Source: an uncultured Erysipelothrix sp. | GTDB lineage: Bacteria > Bacillota_I > Bacilli_A > Erysipelotrichales > Erysipelotrichaceae | Direction of reading: 5' to 3' | DNA: 26,738 nt | Assembly: GCA_964464075.1 (NCBI GenBank) | Contig: CAYXES010000003.1 | Coordinates: 1 to 26,738 of the forward strand | Shown: positions 6,155 to 25,105 of the stretch, in pieces | Numbering within the stretch: the stretch's first letter is position 1 | How the letters are laid out: each line of letters opens with the position of its first letter | The notes under the pieces: generated by a model | What the model was told of the DNA's origin: nothing | Database searches by the model: none | What the model saw: only the letters and a program-made list of their open reading frames with translations | Program-made: the position numbers and the translations under genes

Positions 6155-6168
6155 GGAGGTAAACAACT

Positions 6169-7575: not shown

Positions 7576-7585
7576 GTAACATAAG

Positions 7586-7611
7586 AAAAACTCTCGATTG
7601 AGAGTTTTTTT
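7586..7611. terminator. bidirectional intrinsic terminator
   Basis: AAAAACTCTC-GATT-GAGAGTTTTT perfect hairpin between convergent pdhD and the macrodomain gene. Confidence 0.88.
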
Positions 7612-7634
7612 GTGTTCTAATAAAGAAGCAACAA

Positions 7635-8096
7635 CTAAGGGTAAAGACAGAGATAAACCTTGAGTGGATGTTGATCAATAAAAGCTTCAATGGTTTTAAT
7701 GGCGATCTGCTTAGCTTGCTGGTAAGGATAACCATAAATACCCGCTGAGATCAAGGGAAAGGCCATGGATTGGCACTCCTGCTTCAGCGCTAATTTCATA
7801 GAATTTAGATAAGCCATTTCAAGTTGTTTAGCTTCATTGGATTGTCCATCTTGATAGATGGGCCCCACTGTATGAATAATATACCTAGCTTTTAAATTGA
7901 AGCCTGGTGTAATCACCGCTTGTGAGGTTGAGATTGGTGCCAGTGGCTGACAAGCTGCGCTTAAGGCATCTATCCCAGCCGCTTTAAATATCGCACCACA
8001 AACTCCACCACCCATAATTAACTTAGAATTAGCGGCATTCACAATGACATCCACATCCATTTGCGTGATATCTTGATGAACCATCTTAAAGCTCAT
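7635..8096 (-). CDS. macrodomain protein (MacroD/YmdB-like ADP-ribose binding or hydrolase)
   Basis: DIT..DVIVNAAN..GGGVCGAIF, IIHTVGP, AFPLISAGIYGYP; SD GAGGAG. Confidence 0.9.
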   Translation of the reverse strand: MSFKMVHQDITQMDVDVIVNAANSKLIMGGGVCGAIFKAAGIDALSAACQPLAPISTSQAVITPGFNLKARYIIHTVGPIYQDGQSNEAKQLEMAYLNSMKLALKQECQSMAFPLISAGIYGYPYQQAKQIAIKTIEAFIDQHPLKVYLCLYP

Positions 8097-8144
8097 TGGA
8101 TCACTCCTCTTATAATATGTTGATAAGTTTATTTACCTAACAAG

Positions 8145-8153
8145 ATTATAGCA
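8145..8153 (-). promoter_or_regulatory. extended -10 promoter of the macrodomain gene
   Basis: TGCTATAAT on the minus strand; no good -35. Confidence 0.5.
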
Positions 8154-8158
8154 TGCTT

Positions 8159-8184
8159 AAAAAAAGAGCGTTTAGAACGCTCTT
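8159..8184 (-). terminator. intrinsic terminator overlapping the permease stop codon
   Basis: Minus strand AAGAGCGTT-CTA-AACGCTCTT followed by a T tract. Confidence 0.8.
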
Positions 8185-10649
8185 AAATCTTCGACTAGAT
8201 TTAACTTCTTACTCTCTACATACAAGGAATAAGAATTCACGATAATAATCAGAATCACTAAGGTACTCGCTAATATGAGAATTTTGATGGGGAAAGAAAA
8301 CTGAATTTGACCATGAAGATCAAAGAGTTCAACGCTGAGGCGATAAATGCCATAGGCCAAGCTAGTCCCTAAGGCTGAACCAAGCAGCCAAGGTTGACCA
8401 ACACTATAGATACTTTCATAGATAAACATACTTAGGATATCTTTACGCTGGGCACCCAGTGAGCGTAAGGCTGCGATTTCAGGCTTACGCTTTTGATAAC
8501 TCGCCATGGATATGGAAACCATATTAATTAAGATGACAATCGCAATGAAAATAAAGACCGCAGTCGTAATAGTATTGATCGAATATTTAATGGTTCGATT
8601 CATTAAATCTTCATAACGAGTACTGTAAAGGTTGATCGTCATCGGTAACTCTTGATCCAGTATTTTTAGGTTTAAGGCTTTTATTTCCAGGGCATCTAAA
8701 TCACTCTCAAGTAGAAATTGAATATAGCTAATTCCTAATTTGGATGTGATTAGCGATTGATAATGATCAAGTGAAATAATAACTAGAGGAGAGGAACGAT
8801 CGAGATAATAGAAATCTAATGGCATATTTTCTATGACATCATCAACCGCAATACTAAGATCAACTTTCCCATCCGTTAGTTTAAGGACATCCTCTGCCTT
8901 TACATCATACATGGGCCCATCATAATCAAGTAAAATATCTTCGCCCCAGTATTCTTTAATCTGCATATGGTTATATAAAACTACACGATCAAGGCTTTGT
9001 GATGAAGCTTTGATTTGTTTTAAGAAAGCTTTCATACTTTGGTTATCTAAACCAAGGATCGTAATATCAAAGCGGCCTCTATCTTCTGGATCAAGGTTTA
9101 ATGCTAAAACATTGGGATGATATGCAAACTCATCGTTAAGGGTGAGGTAGGTCGTTTCATAGTAATGAACTTGACTCTTAATCTCTTTTTCGGCATCAAG
9201 GATGAGTTGTAGCTTCGCCATATCTTGATTTAAGTTGTCAATTTGGGACATGCCTCGCATCGTGATAGTTGTGTCATGTTTGCGAACTAAGGCTTCCGAG
9301 AAATTAAGCAAAGAACCAACCCAGGCATTAATGACGATTAAGATTACCAGCGCAATCCCTAGGGAAGCTTTAATTCCTTTATAGTCTTGGTGACGCATGA
9401 TATTAAAGCGAGCATATTGTTTTAATGGTTTTGTTGATAAGGTAGTTTGTGCTTTAATCTTTTTAATCTGTTTGAGGCGCAGGGTTTCTAAGGAACTACG
9501 TTTAAAGAGTTTACGACTCATAACAATTAAGGCTAAGGCAATGGCGATGATCGCTCCAACAATAATGATCAGAAGCACCGGAAAAGGAAGGTTAAAGAAT
9601 ATGTTTGGGATTTCTCGTGTCGAATCGATAAAAATCGAACCAAGATTATTATGGAGAAACTTTAGTAATAAGAGTGTGAGTAACATCCCCATCCCTAAGC
9701 CCAAGCTAATACCAATAAAACCTAAGAGCATGGCCTCAAATATTAGTACCAACTTGAGTTGATTTTGGGTTGCCCCAACGGAGCGTAGAACCCCAAAGGT
9801 ATGGAACTTATGAGTAAAGAGAGTATTGAAGGCATTGAAGATAAGTGAGAAAGTCGCTAGAGCTACAATTACAATCATGGTTAGGGTAATCACAATAAAG
9901 CCGTAGAGTACCGGTGGTGCTTTACTTTGAAAGCCCCCAAAGAAATTATACTCTTCATTATAATAAGCAAGAGCCCCTTCATAAGCTAGCGTAGGATTGT
10001 TGAGGGCAGCTCCAATAAGTTGATCAATATTTTTAGTACCTTTAACGAAAGCCAAATCAATATATAAACCATGTGGTCCAACCTCGATCTCATTTGGTTT
10101 TTGATAAAAGCTGGCAATACGATCCTTTTTAGAACGACCCACCACGATTGCTTCAATCTGATGACTTGCTTGCGTTTCATTATCAATGATTTCGATCGTC
10201 ACTTGATCATTGATTTGAAGCGGTGAGCCTTGTGGAATCACAATCTCATTGATGCTAGTCGAGGCGCGTCCATCGATGATGGTTTTCTCATCACAAAATT
10301 CTTTTGGCTCATCCAAATGACATGGACCATAGGTTGAGCTAGTAAGATAGATATCATCTTCAAGTAGCATCATACGAAGTCCGCTACTTTCAATTCCCAC
10401 ATTAAAAGCTGCAATATGTTCCCGTCCAATCGCATCTAAAAATGGGTCTAATTCTTTAATCCGTACCACCGATGCATTCGATTCAATTTCACGGGTCATG
10501 TGTTTACCATAACTGGCGAAAACACTGGTCATGGTCATGGAGACCATGCTGATCATAGCGATGGTTAAGGCCACACTAAGAATCACCAGAAAAGAAGTAT
10601 AACCGTACTTCTTCAGATTAGATGCGGATAGTTGCCACAATATTTTCAT
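8172..10649 (-). CDS. ABC exporter permease, FtsX/MacB-like, duplicated architecture
   Basis: Multiple TM segments; two FtsX-type motifs (FGVLRSVGAT, IAALRSLGAQ); 4-nt overlap with the ATPase gene. Confidence 0.88.
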   Translation of the reverse strand: MKILWQLSASNLKKYGYTSFLVILSVALTIAMISMVSMTMTSVFASYGKHMTREIESNASVVRIKELDPFLDAIGREHIAAFNVGIESSGLRMMLLEDDIYLTSSTYGPCHLDEPKEFCDEKTIIDGRASTSINEIVIPQGSPLQINDQVTIEIIDNETQASHQIEAIVVGRSKKDRIASFYQKPNEIEVGPHGLYIDLAFVKGTKNIDQLIGAALNNPTLAYEGALAYYNEEYNFFGGFQSKAPPVLYGFIVITLTMIVIVALATFSLIFNAFNTLFTHKFHTFGVLRSVGATQNQLKLVLIFEAMLLGFIGISLGLGMGMLLTLLLLKFLHNNLGSIFIDSTREIPNIFFNLPFPVLLIIIVGAIIAIALALIVMSRKLFKRSSLETLRLKQIKKIKAQTTLSTKPLKQYARFNIMRHQDYKGIKASLGIALVILIVINAWVGSLLNFSEALVRKHDTTITMRGMSQIDNLNQDMAKLQLILDAEKEIKSQVHYYETTYLTLNDEFAYHPNVLALNLDPEDRGRFDITILGLDNQSMKAFLKQIKASSQSLDRVVLYNHMQIKEYWGEDILLDYDGPMYDVKAEDVLKLTDGKVDLSIAVDDVIENMPLDFYYLDRSSPLVIISLDHYQSLITSKLGISYIQFLLESDLDALEIKALNLKILDQELPMTINLYSTRYEDLMNRTIKYSINTITTAVFIFIAIVILINMVSISMASYQKRKPEIAALRSLGAQRKDILSMFIYESIYSVGQPWLLGSALGTSLAYGIYRLSVELFDLHGQIQFSFPIKILILASTLVILIIIVNSYSLYVESKKLNLVEDLRAF

Positions 10650-11326
10650 ACCAGCACCTCATCAAGGATGATTTTCCCATCCTCAAGTTTAATGATACGG
10701 TTGGCTTGTTGGGCGATGCTTTCATCATGAGTAATCAAAATAATGGTTTGATTGAGCTCTTGATGGGATGTTTTAATGGTATCGATGATTTCTTGGGAAT
10801 TCTTCTGGTCTAGATTACCGGTAGGTTCATCCAGCAAGAGTAATGAAGGACGATTCATAAGAGCCCGCGCAATGGAAACCCGTTGTTGTTGACCACCGGA
10901 TAGTTGACTGGGTAAATGGCTTAAGCGATCCACTAAATGGAATTTGTTGATCAACAAATCAAAATATGTTTCATCCACTTTTTCATTATCAAGCAGAATA
11001 GGTAAGCGGATATTATTGCCAACATCCAAGGTTGGAATTAAATTATAAAACTGATAAACTAAACCAATCTGTCTTCTACGAAAGATGGTCAGGGCATTTT
11101 CATTTAATCGTGAAATATCAACCCCATCAATTTCAATGGATCCTGAAGTTGGGGTATCTACACAACCCAACATATGGATAAGGGTTGATTTACCACTACC
11201 ACTAGCACCTACTACCGCAATGAATTCACCTTTATCCACTGAAAAAGAGACATCATTTAACGCATAAATGTCTTCCTGAGCTTGTTTATAAATTTTTGTA
11301 AGATTTTTGACTTCTAATAGTTTCAT
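10646..11326 (-). CDS. ABC transporter ATP-binding protein (LolD/MacB type)
   Basis: Walker A GASGSGKS, signature LSGGQQQ, Walker B LLLLDEP, H-loop ITHD. Confidence 0.95.
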
Positions 11327-11372
11327 AGTTTCACCTCATTGTTAGTTTAGTATAAAATCTACTGATCAAAAC

Positions 11373-11387
11373 GAACAATTGTGTCAC
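11373..11387 (-). promoter_or_regulatory. putative response-regulator box upstream of the ABC genes
   Basis: GAACAATTGTGTCAC (+ strand), 13/15 identical to 13013-13027; -10 TATACT at 11349-11354 on the minus strand. Confidence 0.55.
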
Positions 11388-12340
11388 TATTGAAACCGTT
11401 GAAATTGAAAGGTGAAGGTATTTCCATCCACTAAATATAAATCACCGTCTTGATTCAGCATAATCGCTTTAGCGATCGCTAAACCGATTCCTAAGGTATT
11501 AGAACTAGCTCCCGCTAAGGTGAAGAAACGCTCAAAGATGCGTTCACGATAAACTTTCGCGATCGCATCTCCATCATCGGAAATATGAATCAGGGTGGAT
11601 AGTCCTTGACTGATTGTGGTAATTTCAATCTTGGTTTTGGCATATCGGAGTTTATTTGAAAGCACATTAAGAAGTGCTTCTTGAGATTTACTTACATCAC
11701 AAAGACAAGCACTATCTTCAAGCTCTAAAATAATATCAAGTTTAGCTTCATCAATTAAGGGCTGCATACTCATTAAGGTATCTTCAATAAGGTCAACTAC
11801 TGAAATAGTTTCCAATTTAAAAACCTCGGTTTGTGCTTCGAGTTTGATTAAGCGTAATAATCTATCAATTAGAGTCTTTAAACGCAAGATTTGATAATGG
11901 GATTGATAGACTAAATCGTCCTCTTGATTTTGTAGTTCATTAAGGATCAAAAGGGAAGCCAAGGGAGTTTTAAGCTGATGCGAGATGTCCTCAAGAGCCT
12001 GTTTTAAAAAGTCATGTTGCTGGGTGAGCTTTAAGTTCATGCTTTTTAAATGTACGGTAGTACGATTAAGTTCGGCTTGTAGTTTAGCGAGTTCTCCTTC
12101 TTGATAAGCTTCAATATCATAGGTATAGTCGCCCTCATTAAGCTTTTGGAGAAAGAGCTTAAGATTATTGACCCGCTGTTCCCGTTGATTGAGAAATTGA
12201 ACGATAAAAAGTACCACCATCAAAAAGCTAACCCCAATCCCAAGCAGGGGATGTAGATAGCTAAGTAGTGCCCCAATCACAAATGCAAGTAAGAGTTGAA
12301 CTAATAATTTAAGGTTCTCTTTGTCATTAAGATACTTCAT
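11387..12340 (-). CDS. sensor histidine kinase, intramembrane-sensing type
   Basis: Two adjacent N-terminal TMs with no extracellular loop, H-box ISHQLKTPL, DDG, GIGLAIAK. Confidence 0.92.
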   Translation of the reverse strand: MKYLNDKENLKLLVQLLLAFVIGALLSYLHPLLGIGVSFLMVVLFIVQFLNQREQRVNNLKLFLQKLNEGDYTYDIEAYQEGELAKLQAELNRTTVHLKSMNLKLTQQHDFLKQALEDISHQLKTPLASLLILNELQNQEDDLVYQSHYQILRLKTLIDRLLRLIKLEAQTEVFKLETISVVDLIEDTLMSMQPLIDEAKLDIILELEDSACLCDVSKSQEALLNVLSNKLRYAKTKIEITTISQGLSTLIHISDDGDAIAKVYRERIFERFFTLAGASSNTLGIGLAIAKAIMLNQDGDLYLVDGNTFTFQFQRFQ

Positions 12341-12978
12341 GGTTTTAAGGTATAACCTTTCTTATGGATGGTTTCGATTGTGACATAATCGGCAAGCTTA
12401 GCACGTAAACGACGCATCGCAACATTCAAAGTATTTTCTTGGTAAAGGTCATCTACAATATTTAGGTGGTCATTAAGCATTTGACGGGTGACAATTTGTT
12501 GGGGATGGCGCATCAAGAGTAAGAGAATGCGATATTCCTGGACACTAAGATGAATGACTTCATCTTGATAAGTCACAATTGCATTATGCGTATCGATTTT
12601 TAAATCTTGGAAGTGTAGATAGCCTGCTTGAGAACGTCTAAGTAGAGCATCCATCCGTTTCTTGAGCTCGACTAAGGAAAAAGGCTTGGTGATGTAATCA
12701 TCACCACCACTATCAAAGCCTTGGATAACATTGGCTTCATCATCTTTAGCGGTCAAAAACATTAAAGGGGCGTTAGAAACAGTCCTTAATTTAGTCACAA
12801 AATCATAGCCTAATCCATCACCTAGAGTAATATCGACACAGTAAAAGTCATAGCTAAAGTCCATCATGAGTGCTTCTTGCAGACTAAAAAAGAGACTGGT
12901 TTCATAGCCTTCTTGTTCAAAGTAACGTTTTAAAGCGTACGCTAAGGTACGATCATCTTCAATTAAGGCAATTCTCAT
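12337..12978 (-). CDS. OmpR-family response regulator
   Basis: IALIEDD, phospho-Asp in VDITLGDG, FLTAK, DDYITKPF, winged helix LRAKL..GY. Confidence 0.93.
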   Translation of the reverse strand: MRIALIEDDRTLAYALKRYFEQEGYETSLFFSLQEALMMDFSYDFYCVDITLGDGLGYDFVTKLRTVSNAPLMFLTAKDDEANVIQGFDSGGDDYITKPFSLVELKKRMDALLRRSQAGYLHFQDLKIDTHNAIVTYQDEVIHLSVQEYRILLLLMRHPQQIVTRQMLNDHLNIVDDLYQENTLNVAMRRLRAKLADYVTIETIHKKGYTLKP

Positions 12979-14357: not shown

Positions 14358-14366
14358 TGATATAAT
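14358..14366 (+). promoter_or_regulatory. extended -10 promoter of the gfo-amidohydrolase operon
   Basis: TGATATAAT, followed by SD AGGAGG at 14372. Confidence 0.6.
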
Positions 14367-14382
14367 AAAATAGGAGGCAATC

Positions 14383-15351
14383 ATGAAAAAGATAAGCTAT
14401 GGTATTTTAGGACCCGGTTATATTGCGCCACGATTTGTGGAAGCTGTGAATTTAAGTGATGTTGGGCAGGTAATGGCAGTAGCGTCCCTCACAGAAGGTC
14501 GTGCTTATGAATTTGCCCAGAAGCATGAGATTAAATACCACTATGATAATTATGAAGCTTTAGTTTCTAATCCTTTGATTGATGTCGTTTATATTTCAAC
14601 CCGCCATGATGATCACTACGATCATATTATGCTGGCTTTAAAACATCATAAGCATGTTTTGGTTGAGAAACCCATGGTTTTAAAAGAAGCACAAGCTGTA
14701 GCTTGTTTTGCTTATGCAAAGGCGCAGGGTTTATTTTTGATGGAAGCCCAAAAGATGGTGTTTTTGCCTTTAATTAAGGAATTGAAAAAACAAGTTGATG
14801 CGGGTATTATTGGTGACTTACGTTTAATTGAAACCTCATTCTCTTTTGCGGATCGTTTTGAAACAGGTCATTGGATGATTTCCTTCAAACATGGTGGTGG
14901 TTTATTCGCAACCTCATCCTATGGCTTAAGTTTTTCCCATTACTTTGCCAATAGTAAGCCTGCAAAGATAAGTGCGTTAGCGAGCTTGTATGAAAATAAA
15001 GCTGATCGCTATGGTGTCGCAAGTATCCTCTATGAGAATGGGATTTTAGCTCACACTCGTTTTGGTACGGATGTTGAAACGCGCAATCAAGCCTTTTTAT
15101 ATGGTTCCAAAGGTTATATAAAAATAGATTTATTCTGGAAGAATGACTTTGCGAAATTATTTCTTCATGATGGAACTACTCAGGATATTCAAGTGGATAC
15201 CATCAATGATATGGTATATGAAATCAATCATGTCAATGAGTGTTTAAACAAGGGATTGCTGGAATCACCAACGATGTCGGCCACCTTCACAACTCAATTA
15301 ATCTATGATATGGAAACCATTAAGAATATGATTAGTGAGAATGGAAGCTAG
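14383..15351 (+). CDS. Gfo/Idh/MocA-family NAD(P)-dependent oxidoreductase
   Basis: GILGPGYIA Rossmann start, DVVYIST, HVLVEKP, FLMEA. Confidence 0.9.
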   Translation: MKKISYGILGPGYIAPRFVEAVNLSDVGQVMAVASLTEGRAYEFAQKHEIKYHYDNYEALVSNPLIDVVYISTRHDDHYDHIMLALKHHKHVLVEKPMVLKEAQAVACFAYAKAQGLFLMEAQKMVFLPLIKELKKQVDAGIIGDLRLIETSFSFADRFETGHWMISFKHGGGLFATSSYGLSFSHYFANSKPAKISALASLYENKADRYGVASILYENGILAHTRFGTDVETRNQAFLYGSKGYIKIDLFWKNDFAKLFLHDGTTQDIQVDTINDMVYEINHVNECLNKGLLESPTMSATFTTQLIYDMETIKNMISENGS

Positions 15352-15352
15352 G

Positions 15353-16624
15353 ATGATTTTTGGTTTTGGACAAGTAGAAATTTCTATCAATGAACCCATG
15401 CGTATGGATGGCTATTTTGATCGAGTTCAAGCTTCAAGTGGTATGACCTTTCCTTTAATGAGCACGGCATGTATCATTAAAACAAGCAACCATACATTAG
15501 TGATTATTGGTCTTGATATTTTAGGTGTTGATTTAAATATTACCCAAAAAGTAAAGGCCACGATTAGTAAGAGATATCAAATTGATGAGCAGCATATTAT
15601 TCTTAATGCTTCCCATACTCATGCCTCCTATGCATCCGCTCGTTTTGGAGACTTAGGTGGTTTTTTTGTGTTGGAAGATCCAAATGAACTTGAATTAAGT
15701 TATTATGAGAATTTACCTAATAAGATTGTTGAAAGTGTAGATGTTGCTTTTAAAAATCTTCAAAAGGGAAGCATAAGCTACCAACAATGTACCATCGAAG
15801 GAGTTTCATCCAATCGGGTTAATAAACATAACTCTTTTAATCAGGTAGCGACCATCTTTCATTTTAAGGATGCACAAGATCAGTTAAAAGGAATATGGAC
15901 GATTTTTGCGAATCATCCCACCGTTCTTAATTATACGAATACCCAAGTGTCCAATGACTTTATATCCTATTATCATCAAAAGTTAAAGGAACACTATCCT
16001 GATATCACATGCTTGTATCTTCAAGGTTGTGCAGGCGATATTTCCAGTCGTTTTGTGAAGCAAGATGCCAGTATGGCTCAAGCTCAGATGATTGGGTCAC
16101 AATTCGCAAAGCAAGTGTTAACATGTCAAACCCCTTTAATTCAACTCACAAAGTTAAAAGATATTAAATATAGAGAGTTAATATTTGATGCCCGTAACTT
16201 TAGTGAAGATCTTGATAATCAACTTAAACAAGCTTATGATGCTTATCAAAGTGGTCAAGCCCAGGGTCTTCATCACTATGAATTGCGTAGTTTATATGCA
16301 ACTTATGAAGGCTTTTTGATGGCCAAACAAATTCAAATAAAGTTGAAAGTTCCGACTTTAAAGGCAAGTATGAGTGCCATTGAATGGGAAGAACTCATCC
16401 TCATTACAACTCCCTTTGAAACCTTCACTGGTATTGATATGCAGATTCAAGCCATGAGTTCAAAGGATGTGGTGGTTTTGGGCTATACCAATGGGTATCT
16501 TGGATACTTGGTGGATGAAGCGAATGAAGACAATGAGTTATCTTATGAAAGACAGATGATGGTTATAAAAAAAGACTCCTACAAGCAAGTGCTTGATCAG
16601 AGTCAAAAATTCATTGAAAAGTAA
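15353..16624 (+). CDS. neutral/alkaline ceramidase-like (N-terminal domain family) Zn amidohydrolase
   Basis: ASHTHAS, FANHPT, QGCAGDIS, PFETF, GYTNGYLGY motifs; probable start ATG 15353 just after the gfo stop (the ORF track starts at 15335). Confidence 0.72.
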   Translation: MIFGFGQVEISINEPMRMDGYFDRVQASSGMTFPLMSTACIIKTSNHTLVIIGLDILGVDLNITQKVKATISKRYQIDEQHIILNASHTHASYASARFGDLGGFFVLEDPNELELSYYENLPNKIVESVDVAFKNLQKGSISYQQCTIEGVSSNRVNKHNSFNQVATIFHFKDAQDQLKGIWTIFANHPTVLNYTNTQVSNDFISYYHQKLKEHYPDITCLYLQGCAGDISSRFVKQDASMAQAQMIGSQFAKQVLTCQTPLIQLTKLKDIKYRELIFDARNFSEDLDNQLKQAYDAYQSGQAQGLHHYELRSLYATYEGFLMAKQIQIKLKVPTLKASMSAIEWEELILITTPFETFTGIDMQIQAMSSKDVVVLGYTNGYLGYLVDEANEDNELSYERQMMVIKKDSYKQVLDQSQKFIEK

Positions 16625-16648
16625 AAGGGATGTCAGCGACATCCCTTT
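16624..16648. terminator. bidirectional intrinsic terminator
   Basis: AAAGGGATGTC-AGC-GACATCCCTTT perfect 11-bp stem. Confidence 0.88.
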
Positions 16649-16668
16649 ATTAGCATATAATATGTGGC

Positions 16669-17490
16669 TTAGAAGAAACCAACGAGTGCACCTAATAGAC
16701 CAAGAACTAGGACTAATAAGATACATTTGACTGGTGACCAGCCGCGTTTGATTAGATAGTAAAGCAATAAGGTAATTCCAAGTGGAATTAATTTAGGCAT
16801 AATACCATCTAATACTTCTTGAATAATTACAGGTTCTGCAGCATCTGGGTTTAATACTAATTTAGTAGCAGTACCACCATAAACGGAGGTAAGAGCTCCA
16901 ACAACCATAACCCCCAGAATACTTGCAGCTCTGGTAAATTCTTTAGCGTGTTTGGTTAGTGCATCAATGGCGTTAACACCAAGGTCATATGACCAGTGCA
17001 TCAACCAGTAACGAACCCCGAAGTGAACGATATTGAACATTGCCAAGAATACGAATGGTCCAGCGATGTTGCCTTCAAGTGCTAAGTTAGCACTGATACC
17101 GGCAGCAATTGGAATTAAAGTAAACCAGAAAATAGCATCACCAATACCACCTAGTGGACCCATTGCAGCTACACGTACTGCACGGATGGTTGCGATATCA
17201 GCTTTTTGTTGCTCAAGGGATAAAACGATACCCATAACGAAAGTTACTAGGAATGGGTGAGTATTAAAGAACTCAAGGTTGTGTCCCATAGAAGCAGCTA
17301 AGTCTTCTTTGTCTGTATGAATCTTTTTAAGCCCTGGAATGATTCCATATAACCAACCAGCAGCTTGCATACGTGCGTAGTTAAATGAACCTTGAAGGAA
17401 CAATGAACGCCATGCCATTTGATTCAGTACTTTTTTATCCAGCTTTGCGGCTGGTGTCAAATTTCTGTATTGTTCAACATTAGATGCCAT
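16669..17490 (-). CDS. agaD: PTS mannose-family EIID, GalNAc/galactosamine type (AgaE/AgaD-like)
   Basis: QGSFNYARMQAAG, HNLEFFNTHP, MGPLGGIGDAIFW; start ATG 17490 with GGAGG 8 nt upstream. Confidence 0.88.
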   Translation of the reverse strand: MASNVEQYRNLTPAAKLDKKVLNQMAWRSLFLQGSFNYARMQAAGWLYGIIPGLKKIHTDKEDLAASMGHNLEFFNTHPFLVTFVMGIVLSLEQQKADIATIRAVRVAAMGPLGGIGDAIFWFTLIPIAAGISANLALEGNIAGPFVFLAMFNIVHFGVRYWLMHWSYDLGVNAIDALTKHAKEFTRAASILGVMVVGALTSVYGGTATKLVLNPDAAEPVIIQEVLDGIMPKLIPLGITLLLYYLIKRGWSPVKCILLVLVLGLLGALVGFF

Positions 17491-18274
17491 CAGTGTCGCC
17501 TCCTTGTCCTCCGGACATGCCGGCAATTTTAACATTCATTTGGAAGTCATACACTGCAACAGCGATACCAATTAAAGCAATCGCTAGAAGTGCGGCGCCT
17601 CCAAGCACAGGATCAACAACGTTTGCGATAGCAAATCCCGCAAAGTAGAAGCCCCAGTATTCTTTAGAAAGCATAACTTTCATAAGCACTGCAAATCCTA
17701 CGAAGCGCATCATACCACCAGCAGCACCTAAACCGTCCCAAACCCATTGTGGGAATACTTCGGTTAAGGTTGTACCGATTTGTTGACCGAATAATAAACC
17801 TAAGAATACAACTAAGCCGAATAATAAACCAAGCATAGCCATTGCAAAGTAGTTAAGAAGTTCAATACCTCTTGTGTCAGCTTTTTCAGCCATTTGATCA
17901 GCTTTAGTCATAAGTGGGGACATTACTGTAAATAGTAATACAACAGCTTGTTGTCCCAATAATGCAAATGGAATAGATAATCCAAGTGCTTGTTCTGGAT
18001 CAGTTAGATCCATCGAAATTGCAAATACGGTTGCCATAATTCCACCGATAACGGCGTTAGGTGGTTGTGCACCACCGACTGGCATACTTCCAATCATCAT
18101 TAATTCGTAGGATCCACCAACAATTAAGCCGGTTTGCAAGTCCCCTAGGATTGCCCCTACAATCGGCCCCATAACGATAGGGCGGTAGAATGATTCGAGG
18201 AAGTTGAATTGGTCGATTGCTGCCACGAAGGTAACAAGTACAACCAATAAAATTTGAAACATATTAAATTCCAT
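17480..18274 (-). CDS. agaC: PTS mannose-family EIIC, GalNAc/galactosamine type (AgaW/AgaC-like)
   Basis: RPIVMGPIVGAILGDLQTGLIVGG.YEL, GGAQPPN. Confidence 0.88.
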   Translation of the reverse strand: MEFNMFQILLVVLVTFVAAIDQFNFLESFYRPIVMGPIVGAILGDLQTGLIVGGSYELMMIGSMPVGGAQPPNAVIGGIMATVFAISMDLTDPEQALGLSIPFALLGQQAVVLLFTVMSPLMTKADQMAEKADTRGIELLNYFAMAMLGLLFGLVVFLGLLFGQQIGTTLTEVFPQWVWDGLGAAGGMMRFVGFAVLMKVMLSKEYWGFYFAGFAIANVVDPVLGGAALLAIALIGIAVAVYDFQMNVKIAGMSGGQGGDTDGI

Positions 18275-18293
18275 ACAATTTCATCTCCCTTTC

Positions 18294-18770
18294 TTATTTA
18301 AATAATTTTCCGAGGTTCTCAGCAGATTCGCTAGGAACTTTGCGGATTTCGAGTTCGACACCCAACTCCTGCAAACGCTTAAAAGCAGCTACATCATCAT
18401 CATCAACTGCCACTACAGTTGCGACTTGACGTTTGCCTTCCGCCATATGCATGTTACCGATGTTAACTTTCTTAATGGGAACGCCACCCTCAACCATCTT
18501 TACGACGTCTTGGGGATTATCCACAATAATGAAAATCTTCTGACTATCACTCGCTTTATGAATTACGTTGATTGTTTTTTCAATCGTAAAATAGCGAGTT
18601 TGAGCGTAACTTGGTGCGCTCATGTTCATTAGATTTTGGCGAAAGCTATCGCCGGCGACTTGGTCATTAGCAACCAAAATAAGATTGGCTCCTACAACCG
18701 ATGTCCACTGGGTTGCCACTTGACCGTGTATCAAGCGACTGTCAATTCTGGTAAGAAGTATATTTGGCAC
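18294..18770 (-). CDS. agaV: PTS mannose-family EIIB, AgaV-like
   Basis: MPNILLTRIDSRLIHGQV (phospho-His), NIGNMH; GTG start with SD AAGGAGG. Confidence 0.9.
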   Translation of the reverse strand: MPNILLTRIDSRLIHGQVATQWTSVVGANLILVANDQVAGDSFRQNLMNMSAPSYAQTRYFTIEKTINVIHKASDSQKIFIIVDNPQDVVKMVEGGVPIKKVNIGNMHMAEGKRQVATVVAVDDDDVAAFKRLQELGVELEIRKVPSESAENLGKLFK

Positions 18771-18803
18771 GTCCTCTATCCTCCTTCAGCGTAAACACTT
18801 TTG

Positions 18804-18830
18804 TGTAAACGTTTACCTGCCTTAATTATA
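18804..18830 (-). promoter_or_regulatory. PTS operon promoter -10 with a cre site at the transcription start
   Basis: TATAAT (18825-18830, minus); GGTAAACGTTTACA (18804-18817) matches cre at 13/14 and contains the palindrome GTAAACGTTTAC; no consensus -35. Confidence 0.75.
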
Positions 18831-19119
18831 ACTTACATCATTTTTTTAATATTTATAATTTTCTGTGTTGTATTTGACTTTTTTAGTAATTTTTAAAAAC
18901 AAAATTGACAAATTATGCTTATTTTTGTATTTATGCGTTATAATGATGATAGATAAAGAAATTGTTAATCATTAATAGGTAAGACCAGGAAAAGCATGCT
19001 TTTTTAGTTCAACTCATAAAACATAGTGAAATACATATTAAACGAAGTTTTCTAATTATTCTATGGAAAGGGGGCTATGATTAGGCCGCCATAATCTAAC
19101 CTAATCATACAATATTATC

Positions 19120-20283
19120 ATGTTTAATAAAACTACTTCCGCCCAAATTACTAAGTATTATCAGATTTTTAATGAATTAACCGATGATACCATCTCAACT
19201 TTGAATGTGACAACGAAGAACATTCGTCATCAAAACATTAATCGTTTCTTTCAATTTGATAAGCCTACCTACATAAAATGTACCAAGGGAATCGTGATGA
19301 TGGCCTTAGCGAATGAGGATAATCCCGATCAGATTGACTTTTATGTGGTGCACCGGGTTGTGAAGATTAATAAACGCGTTCTCTATAATTTTGTATCATT
19401 AACCAAATCCAGTACCTTGGTTATTTACAGTGAGCCAGGTACAAAACGCAATATCATCCACTTGGATAAAGAAATCAAGATACCCAAGATTATTCCAACC
19501 TTTTCCATTAATCAAGTTTATGCCTATTACTTACAGGTCAAAGGGTCAGCTTATTTCTTTAGTGGAGAAAAACATAATTATTGGGAATTAACCTATGTGG
19601 ATACGGGTCAATTAAAGACCACCATTAATGGGATTACCCATGAATTGAATGATAAGGATCTCATTATTTATGGGCCCAATCAATTCCATAATCAATTCAT
19701 TGATAATGATCGGGTATGTTCCTATCTAACGGTGATGTTTGAGATGAATCCCGAACATTATTCAACCATAGTCAATCGTAAATTCCATGTGAATCGTCAT
19801 CTGCATCCCATCATGCAAAAGATTATGAAGGCCACCACCAATGAAACCTTACTGGGTGAACAACTCCTTTTAGTTTATCTAAAGGAATTAATTTTAGAAC
19901 TCTATCAGTATGATTATGTGGATGCTCAAATGATTACCACACCCGCTCAACAACGCTTTGAGGATGAGATGCTGAATGAAATCATTGTCTTTATTAATGA
20001 GAATTTATCTGAGCCTTTAACGGTGGAGGCTATCTGTCAGAAATATGCGATTAGTCGCTCTACCTTACAAGCACTCTTTAAGAAGAATATGAATGTAGGG
20101 CCCAAGCATTTCATTAATGAACGCAAGCTCGCTCAAAGCAAGCTCTTAATTAAGGAGAATAAGTATACCTTATCCGAAGTAAGTGAGATGTTGTCTTATA
20201 CCTCCATCCATTATTTCTCAAGGACCTTTAAAAAACGCTTTGGTATCACTCCAAGTGAATATGCCAAATCCATCTATAAATAA
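19120..20283 (+). CDS. AraC-family transcriptional regulator with long N-terminal extension
   Basis: Cupin HNYWELTYVDTG..FH and C-terminal double HTH (ISRSTLQALFKK, YTSIHYFSRTFKKRFGITPSEY); 387 aa. Confidence 0.92.
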   Translation: MFNKTTSAQITKYYQIFNELTDDTISTLNVTTKNIRHQNINRFFQFDKPTYIKCTKGIVMMALANEDNPDQIDFYVVHRVVKINKRVLYNFVSLTKSSTLVIYSEPGTKRNIIHLDKEIKIPKIIPTFSINQVYAYYLQVKGSAYFFSGEKHNYWELTYVDTGQLKTTINGITHELNDKDLIIYGPNQFHNQFIDNDRVCSYLTVMFEMNPEHYSTIVNRKFHVNRHLHPIMQKIMKATTNETLLGEQLLLVYLKELILELYQYDYVDAQMITTPAQQRFEDEMLNEIIVFINENLSEPLTVEAICQKYAISRSTLQALFKKNMNVGPKHFINERKLAQSKLLIKENKYTLSEVSEMLSYTSIHYFSRTFKKRFGITPSEYAKSIYK

Positions 20284-20284
20284 A

Positions 20285-20308
20285 AAAACTCATCGCAAGA
20301 TGAGTTTT
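20285..20308. terminator. bidirectional intrinsic terminator (GCAA tetraloop)
   Basis: AAAACTCATC-GCAA-GATGAGTTTT between convergent araC and agaZ. Confidence 0.88.
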
Positions 20309-21587
20309 AACGTTGAATAGCGTAAATATAATCGTCTAAGAATTCTCCAATGCAATCATAAACAATGTCTTCAAAGGTTGCTTGGATTTCACCTGCGACA
20401 ACTTTACGGTATTGGTTCGGTAGCCATTGGTACAAGACCGGCATCAAGATTTCATTATGATTGATGTTATGACGGAGGGTTTCAATCGCAGCTTCCACTT
20501 GATCATAAGGCAAGTAATAGCGAATCCGATCCGAATAGGAATAAGCACGTTTTAGTTTTTGTGCCTTGTCATCACCCACATAATATTTTTGCCAGTATTT
20601 AGGATCTTCAAGCATGACACTTTCTAATACTTCTCTTAAATTAGAAGGATTATCTAACATGAGTTCACTTTCAATCTGTGCTAAAGCAAAGAGAGCTTGA
20701 CGATAACCAAAGGTTAGACCTGGACCAACTTTTAGAATGGCGATATCATCATCGACCATTTGACGTAAACCTTCTTTGGTTTGATAGTCGGTACTGTGTC
20801 CTTCAAAGACTAAACTATCATAAGCAGCTTTTGCTGCAACTAAGTTTTGAGCTTTTTCACTGTTGTAGTGGAAGACTTGGTTATCTCCAAATTCAACGCC
20901 CGGTTGAACCACAATCCCAACGACATCATCCCAGTTTTCAGCCGGTAAGGTTGATTTAAAGACATTGACTTGATGATTGAAATCATCAACTTGGGTAACT
21001 TCTAAGGTATCGACCTCTTCTTGTTCACCACCTGGAATTGGTACTTCACTACCAACGATAAAACTTGGTTTAATGGCTTGGGGGTCTTGCTGTTTCAAAT
21101 CCGCATAGGCCTTATTCGCGACTTCCATTAAGATGGCAGCCCGCTTCGCAACCACTTCGACTGGAAGGGGAGCGTGAGGGTCATCACTGGAAATCTTCAT
21201 TGAAGTATCAATATGGATTTTAGTAAAACCCGCAAAGACATATTGGTAAATAAGTTCTTTCGCCTTTTCCATCGCGGTTGCTTCATCATGATTAATAAAG
21301 GTTAAAGGACCTAAATGGTCGCCTCCTAAGATAATCTTATTAAAGTCATAGCCCATTTCATCACATAGGTCTTTTACCATATTTTTAAAATCAATGGGTT
21401 TCATACCGGTATAACCACCATATTGATCCACCTGATTAGCTGTGGCTTCAATCACTAAGGGAGTATCGGTTGTTTTTGCTTTTTTAATACAAGCCTTTAA
21501 GACCATGGGATTAGCCGTACAGGCACTGTAGACACCTTTGATATTGGATTGATGTCGATTTTTTAAGAGTTGTTTTAAGGGATTCAT
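20307..21587 (-). CDS. agaZ: GatZ/KbaZ(AgaZ)-family protein (tagatose-6P 4-epimerase / aldolase non-catalytic subunit)
   Basis: SACTAN, IEATANQVDQYGGYTGM, LGGDHLGP, HIDTSM, GSEVPIPGG, VVQPGVEF, FEGHSTDYQ, LKVGPGLTF, YSYSDRIRYY. Confidence 0.92.
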   Translation of the reverse strand: MNPLKQLLKNRHQSNIKGVYSACTANPMVLKACIKKAKTTDTPLVIEATANQVDQYGGYTGMKPIDFKNMVKDLCDEMGYDFNKIILGGDHLGPLTFINHDEATAMEKAKELIYQYVFAGFTKIHIDTSMKISSDDPHAPLPVEVVAKRAAILMEVANKAYADLKQQDPQAIKPSFIVGSEVPIPGGEQEEVDTLEVTQVDDFNHQVNVFKSTLPAENWDDVVGIVVQPGVEFGDNQVFHYNSEKAQNLVAAKAAYDSLVFEGHSTDYQTKEGLRQMVDDDIAILKVGPGLTFGYRQALFALAQIESELMLDNPSNLREVLESVMLEDPKYWQKYYVGDDKAQKLKRAYSYSDRIRYYLPYDQVEAAIETLRHNINHNEILMPVLYQWLPNQYRKVVAGEIQATFEDIVYDCIGEFLDDYIYAIQR

Positions 21588-21871
21588 TTTTCCTCCTTTG
21601 AGAGCACTTCACTGATAGAGTAACGTGAGATATCAAGATGGGCTCCCCGCTTAACTTCCACGGTAATAATGTCATCCTTGATTTCAATGACTTTACCATA
21701 GATACCACCCGCAAATAAAATACGTTTACCAACTTGGATATCTTGGTGTAATTGAACAAGATAAGCTTTACGCTTTTTCACCATGGAAAAGCTATATAAA
21801 TAGTAGACTACAATAACAATTAGAAATAAACCTGCCATCACAATGGATGACGCTAAAATTTGTTCCCACAT
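21584..21871 (-). CDS. YajC-family small membrane protein
   Basis: One N-terminal TM, then L..G..I...GGIYGKV..I.DD.I.VEV YajC-like pattern. Confidence 0.78.
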   Translation of the reverse strand: MWEQILASSIVMAGLFLIVIVVYYLYSFSMVKKRKAYLVQLHQDIQVGKRILFAGGIYGKVIEIKDDIITVEVKRGAHLDISRYSISEVLSKEEK

Positions 21872-21883
21872 AGTGCTGCTCCT

Positions 21884-22321
21884 TTAAATTCCATCTTCGC
21901 TATCGAAGTCATCTTGGGTAGGTGCTTCATAGACAAAACGTAGAATTTGTTCTTTACCGGTGTTCACAACTTGGTCGGCTAAGCCTACAACATCACTTTC
22001 AAATTGTCTCATCATATTTAATTCAATTAAAAGTGGTAGATTAGCGCCCGCAAGCACTTCAATGTTTTCATAATTGCTGGCGACGATACAGGCAGACTTA
22101 AAGGGTGAACCACCCGCTAAGTCAGTTGCGAAGATGATTCCATCGCAGGTTTGATTTAAGTCTTCAATCGCATTCACCATCGCTGCTTCGAGCGTCTCAG
22201 TGGTTGCGCCTTCAATAAAATCCAAGGCATAAAAATGGGTTGGTTTCCCCCCAATGAGGGTCAAGGAACTTTCTAGACCTGTTGCAAAGTGTCCATGACC
22301 AGAAATAATTAATCCTATCAT
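21884..22321 (-). CDS. agaF: PTS mannose-family EIIA, AgaF-like
   Basis: IISGHG (phospho-His), DLAGGSPF, GANLPLLIE. Confidence 0.88.
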   Translation of the reverse strand: MIGLIISGHGHFATGLESSLTLIGGKPTHFYALDFIEGATTETLEAAMVNAIEDLNQTCDGIIFATDLAGGSPFKSACIVASNYENIEVLAGANLPLLIELNMMRQFESDVVGLADQVVNTGKEQILRFVYEAPTQDDFDSEDGI

Positions 22322-23487
22322 GATTGACCTCCATGTCCGTATAAGGTTACCCCTTTAACCACTCTATTTACACTTCCACTTGGATCGGGATTATCAGGGG
22401 TCCGATCTAAGGCTAATGATTTAAATAAGCTCAGCGTTTGTGCCAAACTTACATAAGCTAACGTCACAAGATTATCATGAAGTGACTTGGCTTCTTGGTA
22501 GATAACCTTTAAATGATCAAAGTCATAATCTGAAGCATTCTTTAGGGTATCAACAATTAGAATTTGACCCTTATTTTCTTCTTGACTCATTTCAGTAATT
22601 AAATCAATTTCATAACGACGTACTTCTGGTTTGGTGGATAAGTACATCACACTTAAGGTTTTAGCATTTAAGAATGATTTCGGACCATGTCTAAAGCCTA
22701 AGAAGGTGTTAAAGAGACTGGCGGTCTCACCACCGGTTAATTCTAAAAGCTTTAGGGCTGATTCTTGCGCAATTCCTTTGTGGGTATGGCTACCGAGGTA
22801 GACAATGCGCTCAAAATCAAATTGATCCATTTGTTGTTTCAAGACTTGGTAACCTTCATTTAAGAATGCTTCCACCGCAAGGCTGAGAGTTTCAACATCA
22901 TTACTGGTGATTGAAGAATCAAGCAGTAATAAAGCCATCAGATACATATTGGTGAAGCTAGAAGTCATCGCAAAACCAATATCATGGGTTTCTGGTGTTA
23001 ATTCAATGGATAAGATATTATCATGATGATTCGCAAGATCAGCGAGCTTACCATTGGCATTACAAGTAATAAAGATGTGCTTAATATCAGTGCAGTGGTT
23101 TTCGACCTCAAGAAAAGCCCCAATGGATTCGGGTGAGTTACCAGAACGTCCAAAAGACACCATAATGGTTGGTGCATCTTTATCCAAACAAGCTGCGACA
23201 TCAGTAAGTAAATCAGTCGTTGGAATGGATTGTAGGTTAGCCTTAACTTTAGTTTTCAAATTACCCATGAGGGTATTCCCCACAAACTCAGAGGAACCCG
23301 CACCACTAAAGACAATGTTGGCTAGGGGATTATTGATATAATCCTTGATAAATGCTTGATATTTTTCTTGGTTGGCATCATATTGTTGTTTGGTTTTACG
23401 CCATGTGGATGGCTGATGATTTATTTCTCTTGCGGTTTCATACGCATCGAGTTGCTTTAAAGTTTCTTTTGATAAATTAAAATACAT
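22318..23487 (-). CDS. agaS: SIS-domain galactosamine-6P deaminase/isomerase AgaS
   Basis: REINHQP, SGAGSSEFVG, SFGRSGNSPES, FAMTSSFT, ESALKLLELT, GFRHGPKS, PDNP.PSG.VNRVVKGV; start ATG 23487 with SD AAGGGA. Confidence 0.92.
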   Translation of the reverse strand: MYFNLSKETLKQLDAYETAREINHQPSTWRKTKQQYDANQEKYQAFIKDYINNPLANIVFSGAGSSEFVGNTLMGNLKTKVKANLQSIPTTDLLTDVAACLDKDAPTIMVSFGRSGNSPESIGAFLEVENHCTDIKHIFITCNANGKLADLANHHDNILSIELTPETHDIGFAMTSSFTNMYLMALLLLDSSITSNDVETLSLAVEAFLNEGYQVLKQQMDQFDFERIVYLGSHTHKGIAQESALKLLELTGGETASLFNTFLGFRHGPKSFLNAKTLSVMYLSTKPEVRRYEIDLITEMSQEENKGQILIVDTLKNASDYDFDHLKVIYQEAKSLHDNLVTLAYVSLAQTLSLFKSLALDRTPDNPDPSGSVNRVVKGVTLYGHGGQS

Positions 23488-23514: not shown

Positions 23515-23566
23515 ATTATAAGGCATTAAACTTGTGATAAGGTTGTTAGTTTTGTGTTAGTGTTTG
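23515..23566 (-). promoter_or_regulatory. agaS operon promoter with putative activator site
   Basis: TATAAT at 23515-23520 (minus), weak -35, motif TGTGTTAGTGTTTG at 23553-23566 shared with the agaV promoter. Confidence 0.5.
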
Positions 23567-23641
23567 CATTTATTAACGAATGTTAAATTTAGAATACACA
23601 AAATTAAAAAACTCACTATAATAAAAGGTGAGGTGTTACTT

Positions 23642-24157
23642 ATGAAAAAAAGAGATTTACGCCATATTAATTTATATGAAGATAAAAAAGGACAAACAAT
23701 TTTATATGATCCTAAGAAAAAAGAAGGCTATATCGTTCCTGCTGATGATGTTGGTAAGTTGGCCGCACTACAATACCGTTGGTATGTGGTTTTAGCGGTT
23801 GGGATTTTAGCTCATTTATTATTTAATTTGAAATGGTGGTTAAGTTTAGCCATTGTGGTAGTCGTGTTTATCTTAGGTGAGTATACCTATCGTGTTGGGA
23901 TGCTTAAGAAATATGATCGGATTCAAAACTATACACCAGCAAACATTTTGGATAAGTCCATTGAGGCTTACAAACAAGATAAGAAGGCGATGCTAAGTCG
24001 GATTGCTTTGTATTCAGCTCTAGGAGCCTTAGCGTTTCTATCAACCCAGGGACAATCCATTAAAATGGTTGAAACTCAAATTATGTATTTGGTAGGAGCT
24101 TTTGCCTTATTAAATGCTGGCTATCATCTTTACATTTATCTAAAAAGAAATAAATAA
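23642..24157 (+). CDS. hypothetical membrane protein (about 4 TM segments)
   Basis: Hydrophobic segments; SD AGGTGAGG before ATG 23642; TATAAT at 23617-23622. Confidence 0.75.
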   Translation: MKKRDLRHINLYEDKKGQTILYDPKKKEGYIVPADDVGKLAALQYRWYVVLAVGILAHLLFNLKWWLSLAIVVVVFILGEYTYRVGMLKKYDRIQNYTPANILDKSIEAYKQDKKAMLSRIALYSALGALAFLSTQGQSIKMVETQIMYLVGAFALLNAGYHLYIYLKRNK

Positions 24158-24809: not shown

Positions 24810-24896
24810 TGGTGCCCGAGGACGGACTCGAACCGTCATGATATCTCTATCGGTGGATTTTGAGTCCACTGCGTCTACCAATTCCACCACTCGGGC
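24810..24896 (-). tRNA. tRNA-Leu(CAA)
   Basis: GCCCGAG acceptor, anticodon arm GTGGA-CT-CAA-AA-TCCAC, long variable arm, GGTTCGAGTCC, encoded CCA. Confidence 0.96.
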
Positions 24897-25017: not shown

Positions 25018-25105
25018 TGGCGGAGAGCATGGGATTCGAACCCACGGAAGCTTGCACTTCGCTGCCTTTCCAAGACAGTGCCTTAAACCGCTCGGCCAAC
25101 TCTCC
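25018..25105 (-). tRNA. tRNA-Ser(GGA)
   Basis: GGAGAGT acceptor, anticodon arm CTGTC-TT-GGA-AA-GGCAG, long variable arm, GGTTCGAATCC, G73 and encoded CCA. Confidence 0.95.

Follow-up and report, generated by a model that had tools for sequence, protein, structure and literature searches.

A ceramidase-fold protein beside an aga-type gene block of an uncultured Erysipelothrix-like bacterium: a candidate amidase of amino-sugar catabolism

The contig CAYXES010000003.1 of an uncultured Erysipelothrix sp. is represented here by a stretch of 26,738 nucleotides (nt), which we call the window and to which all coordinates refer unless a locus is named. Between positions 14383 and 23526, it carries genes for a complete mannose-family phosphotransferase system (PTS; components IIA, IIB, IIC and IID), for putative galactosamine (GalN) or N-acetylgalactosamine (GalNAc) catabolic enzymes, and, alongside these, for a Gfo/Idh/MocA oxidoreductase (Gfo) and a short protein with the fold of neutral ceramidases, termed CER. 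Genes were identified from a listing of open reading frames (ORFs) combined with Pfam and NCBIfam profile scans, and are compiled with the regulatory elements in Table 1. An earlier note on this DNA, made from the letters alone, had named these genes, and every one of them was recovered at its place. The GC content (0.34–0.45 along the window) is that of a low-GC Firmicute chromosome.

Table 1. Genes and regulatory elements of the locus, with window coordinates.
Feature	Position	Strand	Remarks
Extended −10 element TGATATAAT of the Gfo-CER operon	14358-14366	+	about 6 nt before the ribosome-binding site (RBS) AGGAGG, 14372-14377
Gfo/Idh/MocA oxidoreductase, 322 amino acids (aa), cytoplasmic	14383-15351	+	PF01408 and PF22725
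CER, 423-aa single-domain ceramidase-fold protein, predicted Zn-hydrolase	15353-16624	+	PF04734, N-terminal part only, 63.7 bits
Perfect hairpin AAAGGGATGTC-AGC-GACATCCCTTT	16624-16648		between convergent CER and IID; terminator-like, usable from either side
PTS mannose-family IID	16669-17535	-	PF03613, 5e-94; likely start 17493, giving 274 aa, matching homologues
PTS mannose-family IIC	17480-18274	-	PF03609
PTS mannose-family IIB	18294-18770	-	PF03830
Operator-like box AAAAAAGTCAAATACAACACAGAAAA	18859-18884	-	29-54 nt ahead of the −10 hexamer of IIB (18825-18830); may bind the AraC-type regulator
AraC-family transcriptional regulator	19120-20283	+	PF12833, PF00165; divergent from the IIB-IIC-IID operon
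AgaZ/GatZ/KbaZ-like protein	20307-21587	-	PF08013, 7e-160; PDB 2fiq, 3e-97
YajC-like small membrane protein	21584-21871	-	PF02699; within the operon
PTS mannose-family IIA (AgaF-like)	21884-22321	-	NF040761, 132.6 bits (cutoff 130)
AgaS-family SIS protein, putative GalN-6-phosphate deaminase/isomerase	22318-23487	-	TIGR02815, 354 bits (cutoff 529)
Operator-like box, second copy	23548-23574	-	28-54 nt upstream of the agaS −10 hexamer (23515-23520)
Small membrane protein	23642-24157	+	divergent from agaS; without Pfam match; conserved in relatives

The operon at the right-hand side of the locus reads AgaS-IIA-YajC-AgaZ (23487-20307, minus strand). The AgaS ORF extends to 23526, yet its homologues measure 388-389 aa; the protein is 44-48% identical to Breznakia proteins named AgaS and to SIS-domain proteins of Clostridium and Erysipelotrichaceae. 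With the aga/kba cluster of E. coli (AgaVWEF/BCD PTS, AgaA, AgaS, AgaY/Z and AgaR) and its Firmicute versions, the window shares the four-component mannose-family PTS, an AgaS-family SIS enzyme and AgaZ, and its YajC-like gene is a feature of many Firmicute PTS loci of this type. It differs from the E. coli cluster in that AgaA/NagA, AgaY and a tagatose-6-phosphate kinase are not encoded in cis, and in having an AraC-type instead of a DeoR-type regulator (AgaR), while none of IIC, IID, AgaS and AgaZ reaches its equivalog cutoff. The specificity models give a mixed answer for the PTS: IIB passes the GalN and the GalNAc model alike (199.6 and 199.5 bits; cutoff 180), whereas IIC scores 243 bits on the AgaW model against 182 bits on GalN IIC, and IID 326 bits on AgaE against 255 bits on GalN IID, both IIC and IID being below cutoff.

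The lack of a deacetylase gene in the window, to which the earlier note had drawn attention, is borne out by three kinds of searches. Pfam scans of all larger ORFs in the window yielded no Amidohydro_1, PIG-L or CE4 domain, the NagA hidden Markov model (HMM) had zero matches in the window or in related loci of the same type, and tblastn with NagA, AgaY and LmbE proteins gave a best E value of 0.4. The class II aldolase domain F_bP_aldolase, expected of AgaY, was likewise not found in the window, no tagatose-6-phosphate kinase is among the genes of the locus, and no pseudogene remnants of nagA or agaY were detected in the window clade. AgaZ occurs without AgaY and without this kinase in all blocks of the window type. 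The E. coli proteins GatZ and KbaZ possess fructose-6-phosphate/tagatose-6-phosphate C4-epimerase activity (PMC11907403), and therefore AgaZ alone may turn tagatose-6-phosphate into fructose-6-phosphate; by analogy, AgaS and AgaZ could on their own carry GalN-6-phosphate to fructose-6-phosphate.

Two starts are conceivable for CER: GTG 15335, which lies within Gfo (17 nt of overlap), and ATG 15353, 1 nt past the Gfo stop codon. We favour the latter because its homologues are 423-430 aa long and begin with M-x-F/V-G. The ceramidase profile PF04734 aligns over its positions 17-221 of 509, the C-terminal ceramidase domain finds no match in CER with Pfam, and the score on the NCBI equivalog model for neutral ceramidase (NF041649) is 21.7 bits, as compared to a cutoff of 1200. 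In the PDB, phmmer recovered only the neutral ceramidases of humans (4wgk, ASAH2) and Pseudomonas aeruginosa (2zws, PaCD), with E values of 6e-5 and 1.5e-4. An AlphaFold2 model built on 23 homologues (pLDDT 91, pTM 0.92) matched significantly, in Foldseek, these neutral ceramidases only (E 1e-26 to 1e-28; query-normalised TM-score (TMq) 0.72-0.76; 15-18% identity), the comparison with 2zws giving an E value of 2e-28 and a TMq of 0.74. No N-terminal hydrophobic signal is visible by eye in CER, and no signal peptide in Gfo. CER is thus predicted, from model and sequence, to have the ceramidase catalytic-domain fold but not to be a typical ceramidase: the latter have about 650 aa as well as a C-terminal domain and a signal peptide, of which CER shows neither, and the genomic context of CER is one of amino sugars, not of sphingolipids.

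The motifs H88-T-H90, N154-R155, N-H188-P, E356 and G-Y378-T-N-G-Y382-x-G-Y385 (GYTNGYLGY), as well as Y398, are invariant or nearly so in the nine-member clade to which CER belongs and in the 23-sequence alignment. In 2zws and 4wgk, their counterparts in the alignment are the HTHS, NRS, VHS and GYANAYASY segments, and the His/His/Arg/His/Glu/Tyr residues involved are those that we take to be the Zn ligands and catalytic residues in the PaCD and human ceramidase structures. The HTH, NH, E and GY motifs singled out in the earlier note as the zinc and catalytic motifs of this fold are among them. The ratio of non-synonymous to synonymous substitution rates (dN/dS) is 0.11 at dS 0.82 for the single unsaturated pair (L004 versus L009; other pairs have dS above 2), and by this measure the gene is functional.

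Two Gfo proteins solved by structural genomics, from Streptococcus and Enterococcus (3evn and 3e9m; 3e-50), are the best PDB matches of Gfo; dimeric dihydrodiol dehydrogenase (2o48; 3.5e-35) comes next. The best NCBIfam match of Gfo is D-xylose 1-dehydrogenase, far under cutoff. By sequence, Gfo belongs to the dimeric dihydrodiol/D-xylose 1-dehydrogenase-like subgroup, and none of the best 60 of its 65 PDB matches is a GH109 or alpha-N-acetylgalactosaminidase structure. Its orthologues (58-100% identity) are confined to the same narrow clade as the block, the next relatives (at most 38%) being stand-alone genes, e.g., in Enterococcus. Gfo and CER abut or overlap in every case, implying translational coupling. 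Gfo is clade-specific and coupled to CER, yet it is kept in a locus where CER is absent (L024, see below). We rejected Gfo as a general partner of the CER family, its HMM matching one of 11 and, in the larger sample, seven of 93 outgroup loci.

Transcription signals separate the Gfo-CER operon from its neighbours. An extended −10 element, TGnTATAAT, stands at the same place upstream of Gfo in the window and in L001, L004, L005, L007, L009 and L027; in every lineage, a terminator is followed by this element a few bases ahead of the RBS, while the remaining intergenic sequence, down to 69 nt in L001, is unconserved. A box of about 27 bp (consensus AAAAAGKnCAAAyA...CACAAAA) precedes the −10 hexamers of IIB and agaS at a constant distance in the window, L001, L004 and L005; in L024, it is present ahead of IIB. 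The position weight matrix made from these boxes scores its training sites at 24-30 and the next best sites at 16.5 or less; since it was trained on the sites that it rediscovers, only its matches in the AgaZ/AgaY divergent region of L026 (21.0 and 17.5), a locus outside the training set, are independent. The two aga operons thus appear to share a regulator site, presumably that of the AraC-type protein. The matrix found no box upstream of Gfo in any locus, and Gfo-CER appears to be transcribed independently of the aga operons, probably constitutively. Both the convergent arrangement of CER and the PTS genes around a shared terminator and the separate promoter of Gfo-CER had been pointed out in the earlier note, the latter as a caveat, and both hold.

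Close homologues of CER are rare: nine clusters at 90% identity were retrieved among 5.8 billion proteins; in the full scan, four representatives at 50% identity correspond to them. At least six lineages of related, uncultured Erysipelothrix-like bacteria carry the block, in the conserved order Gfo-CER, IID-IIC-IIB, AraC, AgaZ-YajC-IIA-AgaS and small membrane protein, which is present in the window, L001/L002/L011, L004, L005 and L027/L028 (all of them with enough contig) and partially in L010. A check on co-occurrence, suggested at the outset, was positive: wherever the sequence of a related lineage is long enough, Gfo-CER stands beside the aga-type block. Because the flanks differ on both sides between loci, the block appears to travel as a unit. 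Identity between lineages amounts to 63-71% for Gfo, 58-67% for AgaS, 67-80% for AraC, 75-80% for AgaZ and 78-96% for the PTS proteins; the small membrane protein is 51-59% identical in L001, L004, L005 and L024.

For IID, dS is 0.6-0.8 (window versus L001, L027 and L010), while the genes next to it have reached saturation (dS above 2), and in L010 IID is 96% and CER 52% identical to the window protein. Either strong codon bias or recent recombination in the PTS genes could explain why these are so much more similar between species than their neighbours. L010 (JAAYPI010000199.1) is a 2-kb contig binned in a metagenome-assembled genome (MAG) labelled "Bacteroidales bacterium" and is almost certainly a mis-binned Erysipelothrix-like contig.

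Two further types of loci put the window in perspective. L024/L025 carry an orthologous block (AgaS 55%, AraC 63%, Gfo 58% and the membrane protein 52% identical), in which Gfo, in L024, overlaps an upstream NFACT/RqcH gene. L026 is more distant (AgaS 49%, homologous AraC regulator 39%) and has a canonical set, with a NagA-type amidohydrolase, AgaZ plus a class II aldolase (AgaY) (5712-8114), a HAD hydrolase and a PTS, and with neither Gfo nor CER. Its NagA gene is immediately upstream of a 168-aa gene (8145-8651) homologous to the small membrane protein of the window. Since L026 has both NagA and AgaY, the window-type locus looks like an L026-type locus from which these two are missing. Being present in all versions of the block and, as this homologue, following NagA in L026, the small membrane protein appears to be a part of these aga loci that has gone unrecognised.

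The association of CER with amino-sugar genes reaches well beyond this clade. An exhaustive HMMER scan returned 4003 clusters at E <= 1e-3 (1072 at E <= 1e-10), mostly single-domain proteins of 400-440 aa, with R24, H88, H90, H188, Y378 and Y385 as the invariants common to the family. A metagenome scan seeded with the nearest outgroups gave 80 loci, in which neighbouring genes were clustered and representatives annotated. Neighbour counts refer to 93 outgroup loci and to genes at most 5 kb from CER, the mean flank available being 5.7 of a possible 10 kb. At least one neighbour of the amino-sugar type (SIS_2, NagA, BadF kinase, mannose-family PTS, NanE or NagB), mostly co-directional, was present in 41 of the 93. 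Of all recurrent neighbours, a SIS_2 protein (NF002805/PRK02947) was the most frequent (24 loci), followed by a NagA-type amidohydrolase (19), a BadF-family sugar kinase (14), a DegT aminotransferase and mannose-family PTS components (12 each, the latter all on the same strand), NanE and Gfo (seven each), a GntR/UTRA regulator (six) and NagB (four). For a random gene, we roughly estimate the chance of a NagA gene inside 5 kb at well under 1%. We found no paper that links the CER family with amino-sugar operons. A preliminary view that there is "no family-level theme", taken from the distant loci L012-L023 with their unrelated contexts (peptide transporters, gamma-glutamyl transpeptidase), was overturned by the HMMER and metagenome scans.

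In the operon of L033, the order is NagA>SIS_2>IIB>IIC>IID>NanE>CER>IIA; in L037 and L040, it is GntR>IIB>IIC>IID>CER>IIA>SIS_2, and in L065, where the transporter is of the ATP-binding cassette (ABC) type, ABC>NanE>SIS_2>BadF>CER>NagA. In the PTS-type operons of L035-L037 and L040, CER and the SIS protein are the sole catabolic enzymes, an arrangement that, by analogy, parallels a deacylase followed by a deaminase. These loci resemble the window in belonging to the same family and super-clade (see below), in having CER adjoin the PTS IID gene and in a SIS-fold partner. They differ from it in that CER is inside the PTS operon, with a GntR/UTRA regulator and SIS_2 as the partner, whereas the window has CER converging on the PTS genes and coupled to Gfo, with an AraC-type regulator and AgaS.

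As an observation in its own right, CER and SIS_2 form a recurrent uncharacterised module, accompanied either by a mannose-family PTS or by a BadF-family kinase along with an ABC transporter, and in many cases by NanE, NagA and NagB (L033, L037, L040, L065, L104 and others of L032-L111). L104 adds to it an LmbE/BshB1-like deacetylase and an AP_endonuc_2 TIM-barrel protein.

In a neighbour-joining tree (Poisson distance, 200 bootstraps), the CER clade of the window is monophyletic in 200 of 200 replicates, and with 12 further sequences (P0253-P0258, L033-L037 and L040) it constitutes a super-clade in 196, the internal order of which the tree does not settle. All six metagenome loci of this super-clade that come with gene context are mannose-family PTS operons with CER inside and adjoining IID (IID>CER>IIA).

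In the reading that we favour, and to which we assign a probability of roughly 45%, the genes of the region would form a block for GalNAc/GalN-type catabolism in an uncultured Erysipelothrix-like bacterium. The mannose-family PTS would import an amino sugar and phosphorylate it at position 6, AgaS would deaminate and isomerise the free amino-sugar 6-phosphate to tagatose-6-phosphate, and AgaZ would take the latter, either as a C4 epimerase forming fructose-6-phosphate or together with an aldolase encoded elsewhere. The AraC-type regulator would control the two aga operons via the common upstream box. The separate Gfo-CER operon would supply a cytoplasmic Zn-dependent amide hydrolase with a neutral-ceramidase catalytic domain, and CER would hydrolyse the amide bond on the amino-sugar phosphate made by the PTS, that is, N-deacylate a compound like N-acyl-galactosamine-6-phosphate, possibly GalNAc-6-phosphate, to feed AgaS. 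What we infer here is which substrate CER has, which way the flux runs and whether Gfo plays a part. CER would be a functional analogue of NagA/AgaA of the amidohydrolase superfamily, as a metal-dependent amide hydrolase that precedes a SIS-type deaminase, though there is no sequence or fold relationship between them and both often occur in one operon.

The gene content, the conserved synteny, the fold with its conserved catalytic residues and the family-wide association with amino-sugar operons are established. This family-level context makes a chance adjacency to a mannose-family PTS and a SIS enzyme unlikely, and hence we lean towards a genuine functional connection of CER with the catabolism of amino sugars; a functional tie of this particular CER to the pathway is close to an even bet. 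That CER is specifically the missing GalNAc-6-phosphate deacetylase is doubtful. We regard as equally doubtful the broader notion that short ceramidase-fold proteins are an unrecognised class of cytoplasmic amino-sugar-phosphate N-deacylases, non-homologous to NagA, AgaA and LmbE and working with SIS deaminases downstream of a mannose-family PTS or of kinases in several phyla, with CER having displaced AgaA here in a reduced aga locus in which AgaZ alone converts tagatose-6-phosphate to fructose-6-phosphate.

A number of observations weigh against the favoured reading. The Gfo-CER operon has its own extended −10 promoter, which does not have the box that IIB and agaS share, and no gene of the block evolves faster than CER (39-52% identity between lineages). 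L024/L025 lack CER, with Gfo directly convergent on IID at a distance of 31 nt, and L024 lacks NagA as well. In one sub-lineage, two fasciclin-domain genes lie between CER and IID (L005, 8104-9957), and fasciclin genes follow CER in L007 (5781-6820). In the tree, the nearest single relative of the window clade, in 155 of 200 bootstraps, is P0255, an Erysipelothrix paralogue outside sugar operons. Members of the CER family are often directly beside NagA (the 19 of 93 loci counted above); therefore, the reaction of CER is probably not identical to that of NagA, and CER might act on a different N-acyl group or on a substituent attached by an amide bond. In E. coli, nagA replaces agaA, according to a statement in PMC12118421 that cites Hu et al. 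2013, and steps encoded in trans are common for GalNAc clusters: in the pig-gut MAGs of one study, this held for one step of the pathway in every case (bioRxiv 10.1101/2020.07.16.206219).

Several of these points fit an alternative that we consider rather unlikely overall, in which a housekeeping NagA encoded elsewhere deacetylates GalNAc-6-phosphate, while Gfo-CER is a constitutive unit of two genes with a different job that stands beside the aga block solely through common descent in a narrow lineage. The separate promoter without the aga box, the retention in L024 of the rest of the block without CER and NagA, the fasciclin genes inserted in L005 and the precedents for exchange of agaA by nagA and for a step in trans are all coherent with it, as are the overlap of Gfo with the NFACT/RqcH gene in L024 and the stand-alone Gfo paralogues of Enterococcus. 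The association of CER with mannose-family PTS and amino-sugar operons at the level of both family and super-clade, on the other hand, makes pure coincidence unlikely, and the boundaries of the block are conserved where both flanks are variable. Taken together, the proposal of the earlier note that CER may be an N-acyl-sugar(-phosphate) deacylase stands in part: the fold, the motifs, the synteny and the 41 of 93 loci strengthen the link with amino sugars, whereas the replacement of AgaA has lost ground through the NagA genes beside family members, L024, the separate promoter and the possibility of nagA in trans.

The paralogue P0255 (28% identity; L030 7252-11153, and L031) overlaps RsmD in an FtsW/RodA-RsmD-CER operon that is convergent with a PgeF-like (Cu-oxidase_4) gene, a context that hints at a cell-wall-related housekeeping role for that protein. 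This bears on an improbable second alternative, namely that CER is a cytoplasmic amidase for cell-wall-derived amino sugars (removing, e.g., the peptide from MurNAc-peptide phosphates; MurNAc, N-acetylmuramic acid) and not an N-deacetylase, the BadF/MurK-like kinase, SIS protein and NagA then being a recycling route of the muropeptide type. MurK is a BadF-family kinase, and MurQ has the SIS fold. The recurrence of BadF-family kinase, SIS_2 and NagA beside CER would suit such a route, and some distant CER proteins adjoin peptide ABC transporters and peptidases. However, the SIS_2 partner is NF002805 and not MurQ (with a weak, partial MurQ match at E 1e-7), and AgaS and AgaZ at the window locus point to galactosamine, not to muramic acid.

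Slightly less probable again is a PTS specific for free galactosamine, by which a deacetylase would be unnecessary. The equal fit of IIB to the GalN and GalNAc models, a IIA of the shared AgaF type, and the joint absence of NagA and AgaY in cis are in line with it, but IIC and IID score higher on the GalNAc models, albeit below cutoff, and NagA is present in L026, which is the most similar among loci with a fuller gene set.

An idea that the earlier note had offered as its alternative, that CER is a true ceramidase acting with a GH109-like, NAD-dependent glycosidase (Gfo) to process GalNAc-containing glycosphingolipids for the PTS, can draw on the ceramidase fold and catalytic residues but is barely credible, in that neither protein shows a signal peptide, CER is without the C-terminal domain and far under the ceramidase cutoff, Gfo is nearest to dihydrodiol/xylose dehydrogenase-type enzymes, with no GH109 structure among the best 60 of its 65 PDB matches and a place near CER in only seven of 93 loci, and lipids are not imported by a PTS.

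The catabolism of amino sugars (N-acetylglucosamine, GalNAc, N-acetylmannosamine and MurNAc) is deemed well mapped, with amide cleavage assigned to NagA/AgaA, to LmbE/PIG-L-type and to carbohydrate esterase (CE) family enzymes. CER is a candidate for a new class of amidase in these pathways. If this is true, a ceramidase-fold family with thousands of members would add a new type of enzyme to them and may mark an unrecognised substrate, and the routine annotation of these bacterial proteins as "neutral ceramidase", wrongly implying sphingolipid metabolism, would be corrected. The use of GalNAc by Erysipelotrichaceae is relevant for gut ecology (bioRxiv 10.1101/2020.07.16.206219), and the gene content of such loci therefore matters when users of mucin-derived sugars are to be predicted. 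One recombinant protein and a short list of substrates would suffice to test the hypothesis directly.

The rest of the window encodes a lipoate ligase, a pyruvate/2-oxoacid dehydrogenase operon, a macro-domain protein, an ABC/FtsX transporter with a two-component system, and small enzymes. The transporter genes constitute a Bce-like peptide-sensing and detoxification module (8172-12978, minus strand) of an 825-aa FtsX-type permease, an ABC ATPase, a histidine kinase and an OmpR-type response regulator, which is unrelated to the locus. Neither riboswitches nor leader RNAs turned up in the region in an Rfam scan; the sole Rfam matches in the window are two tRNA genes downstream of the block, at 24813-24896 and 25021-25105 on the minus strand.

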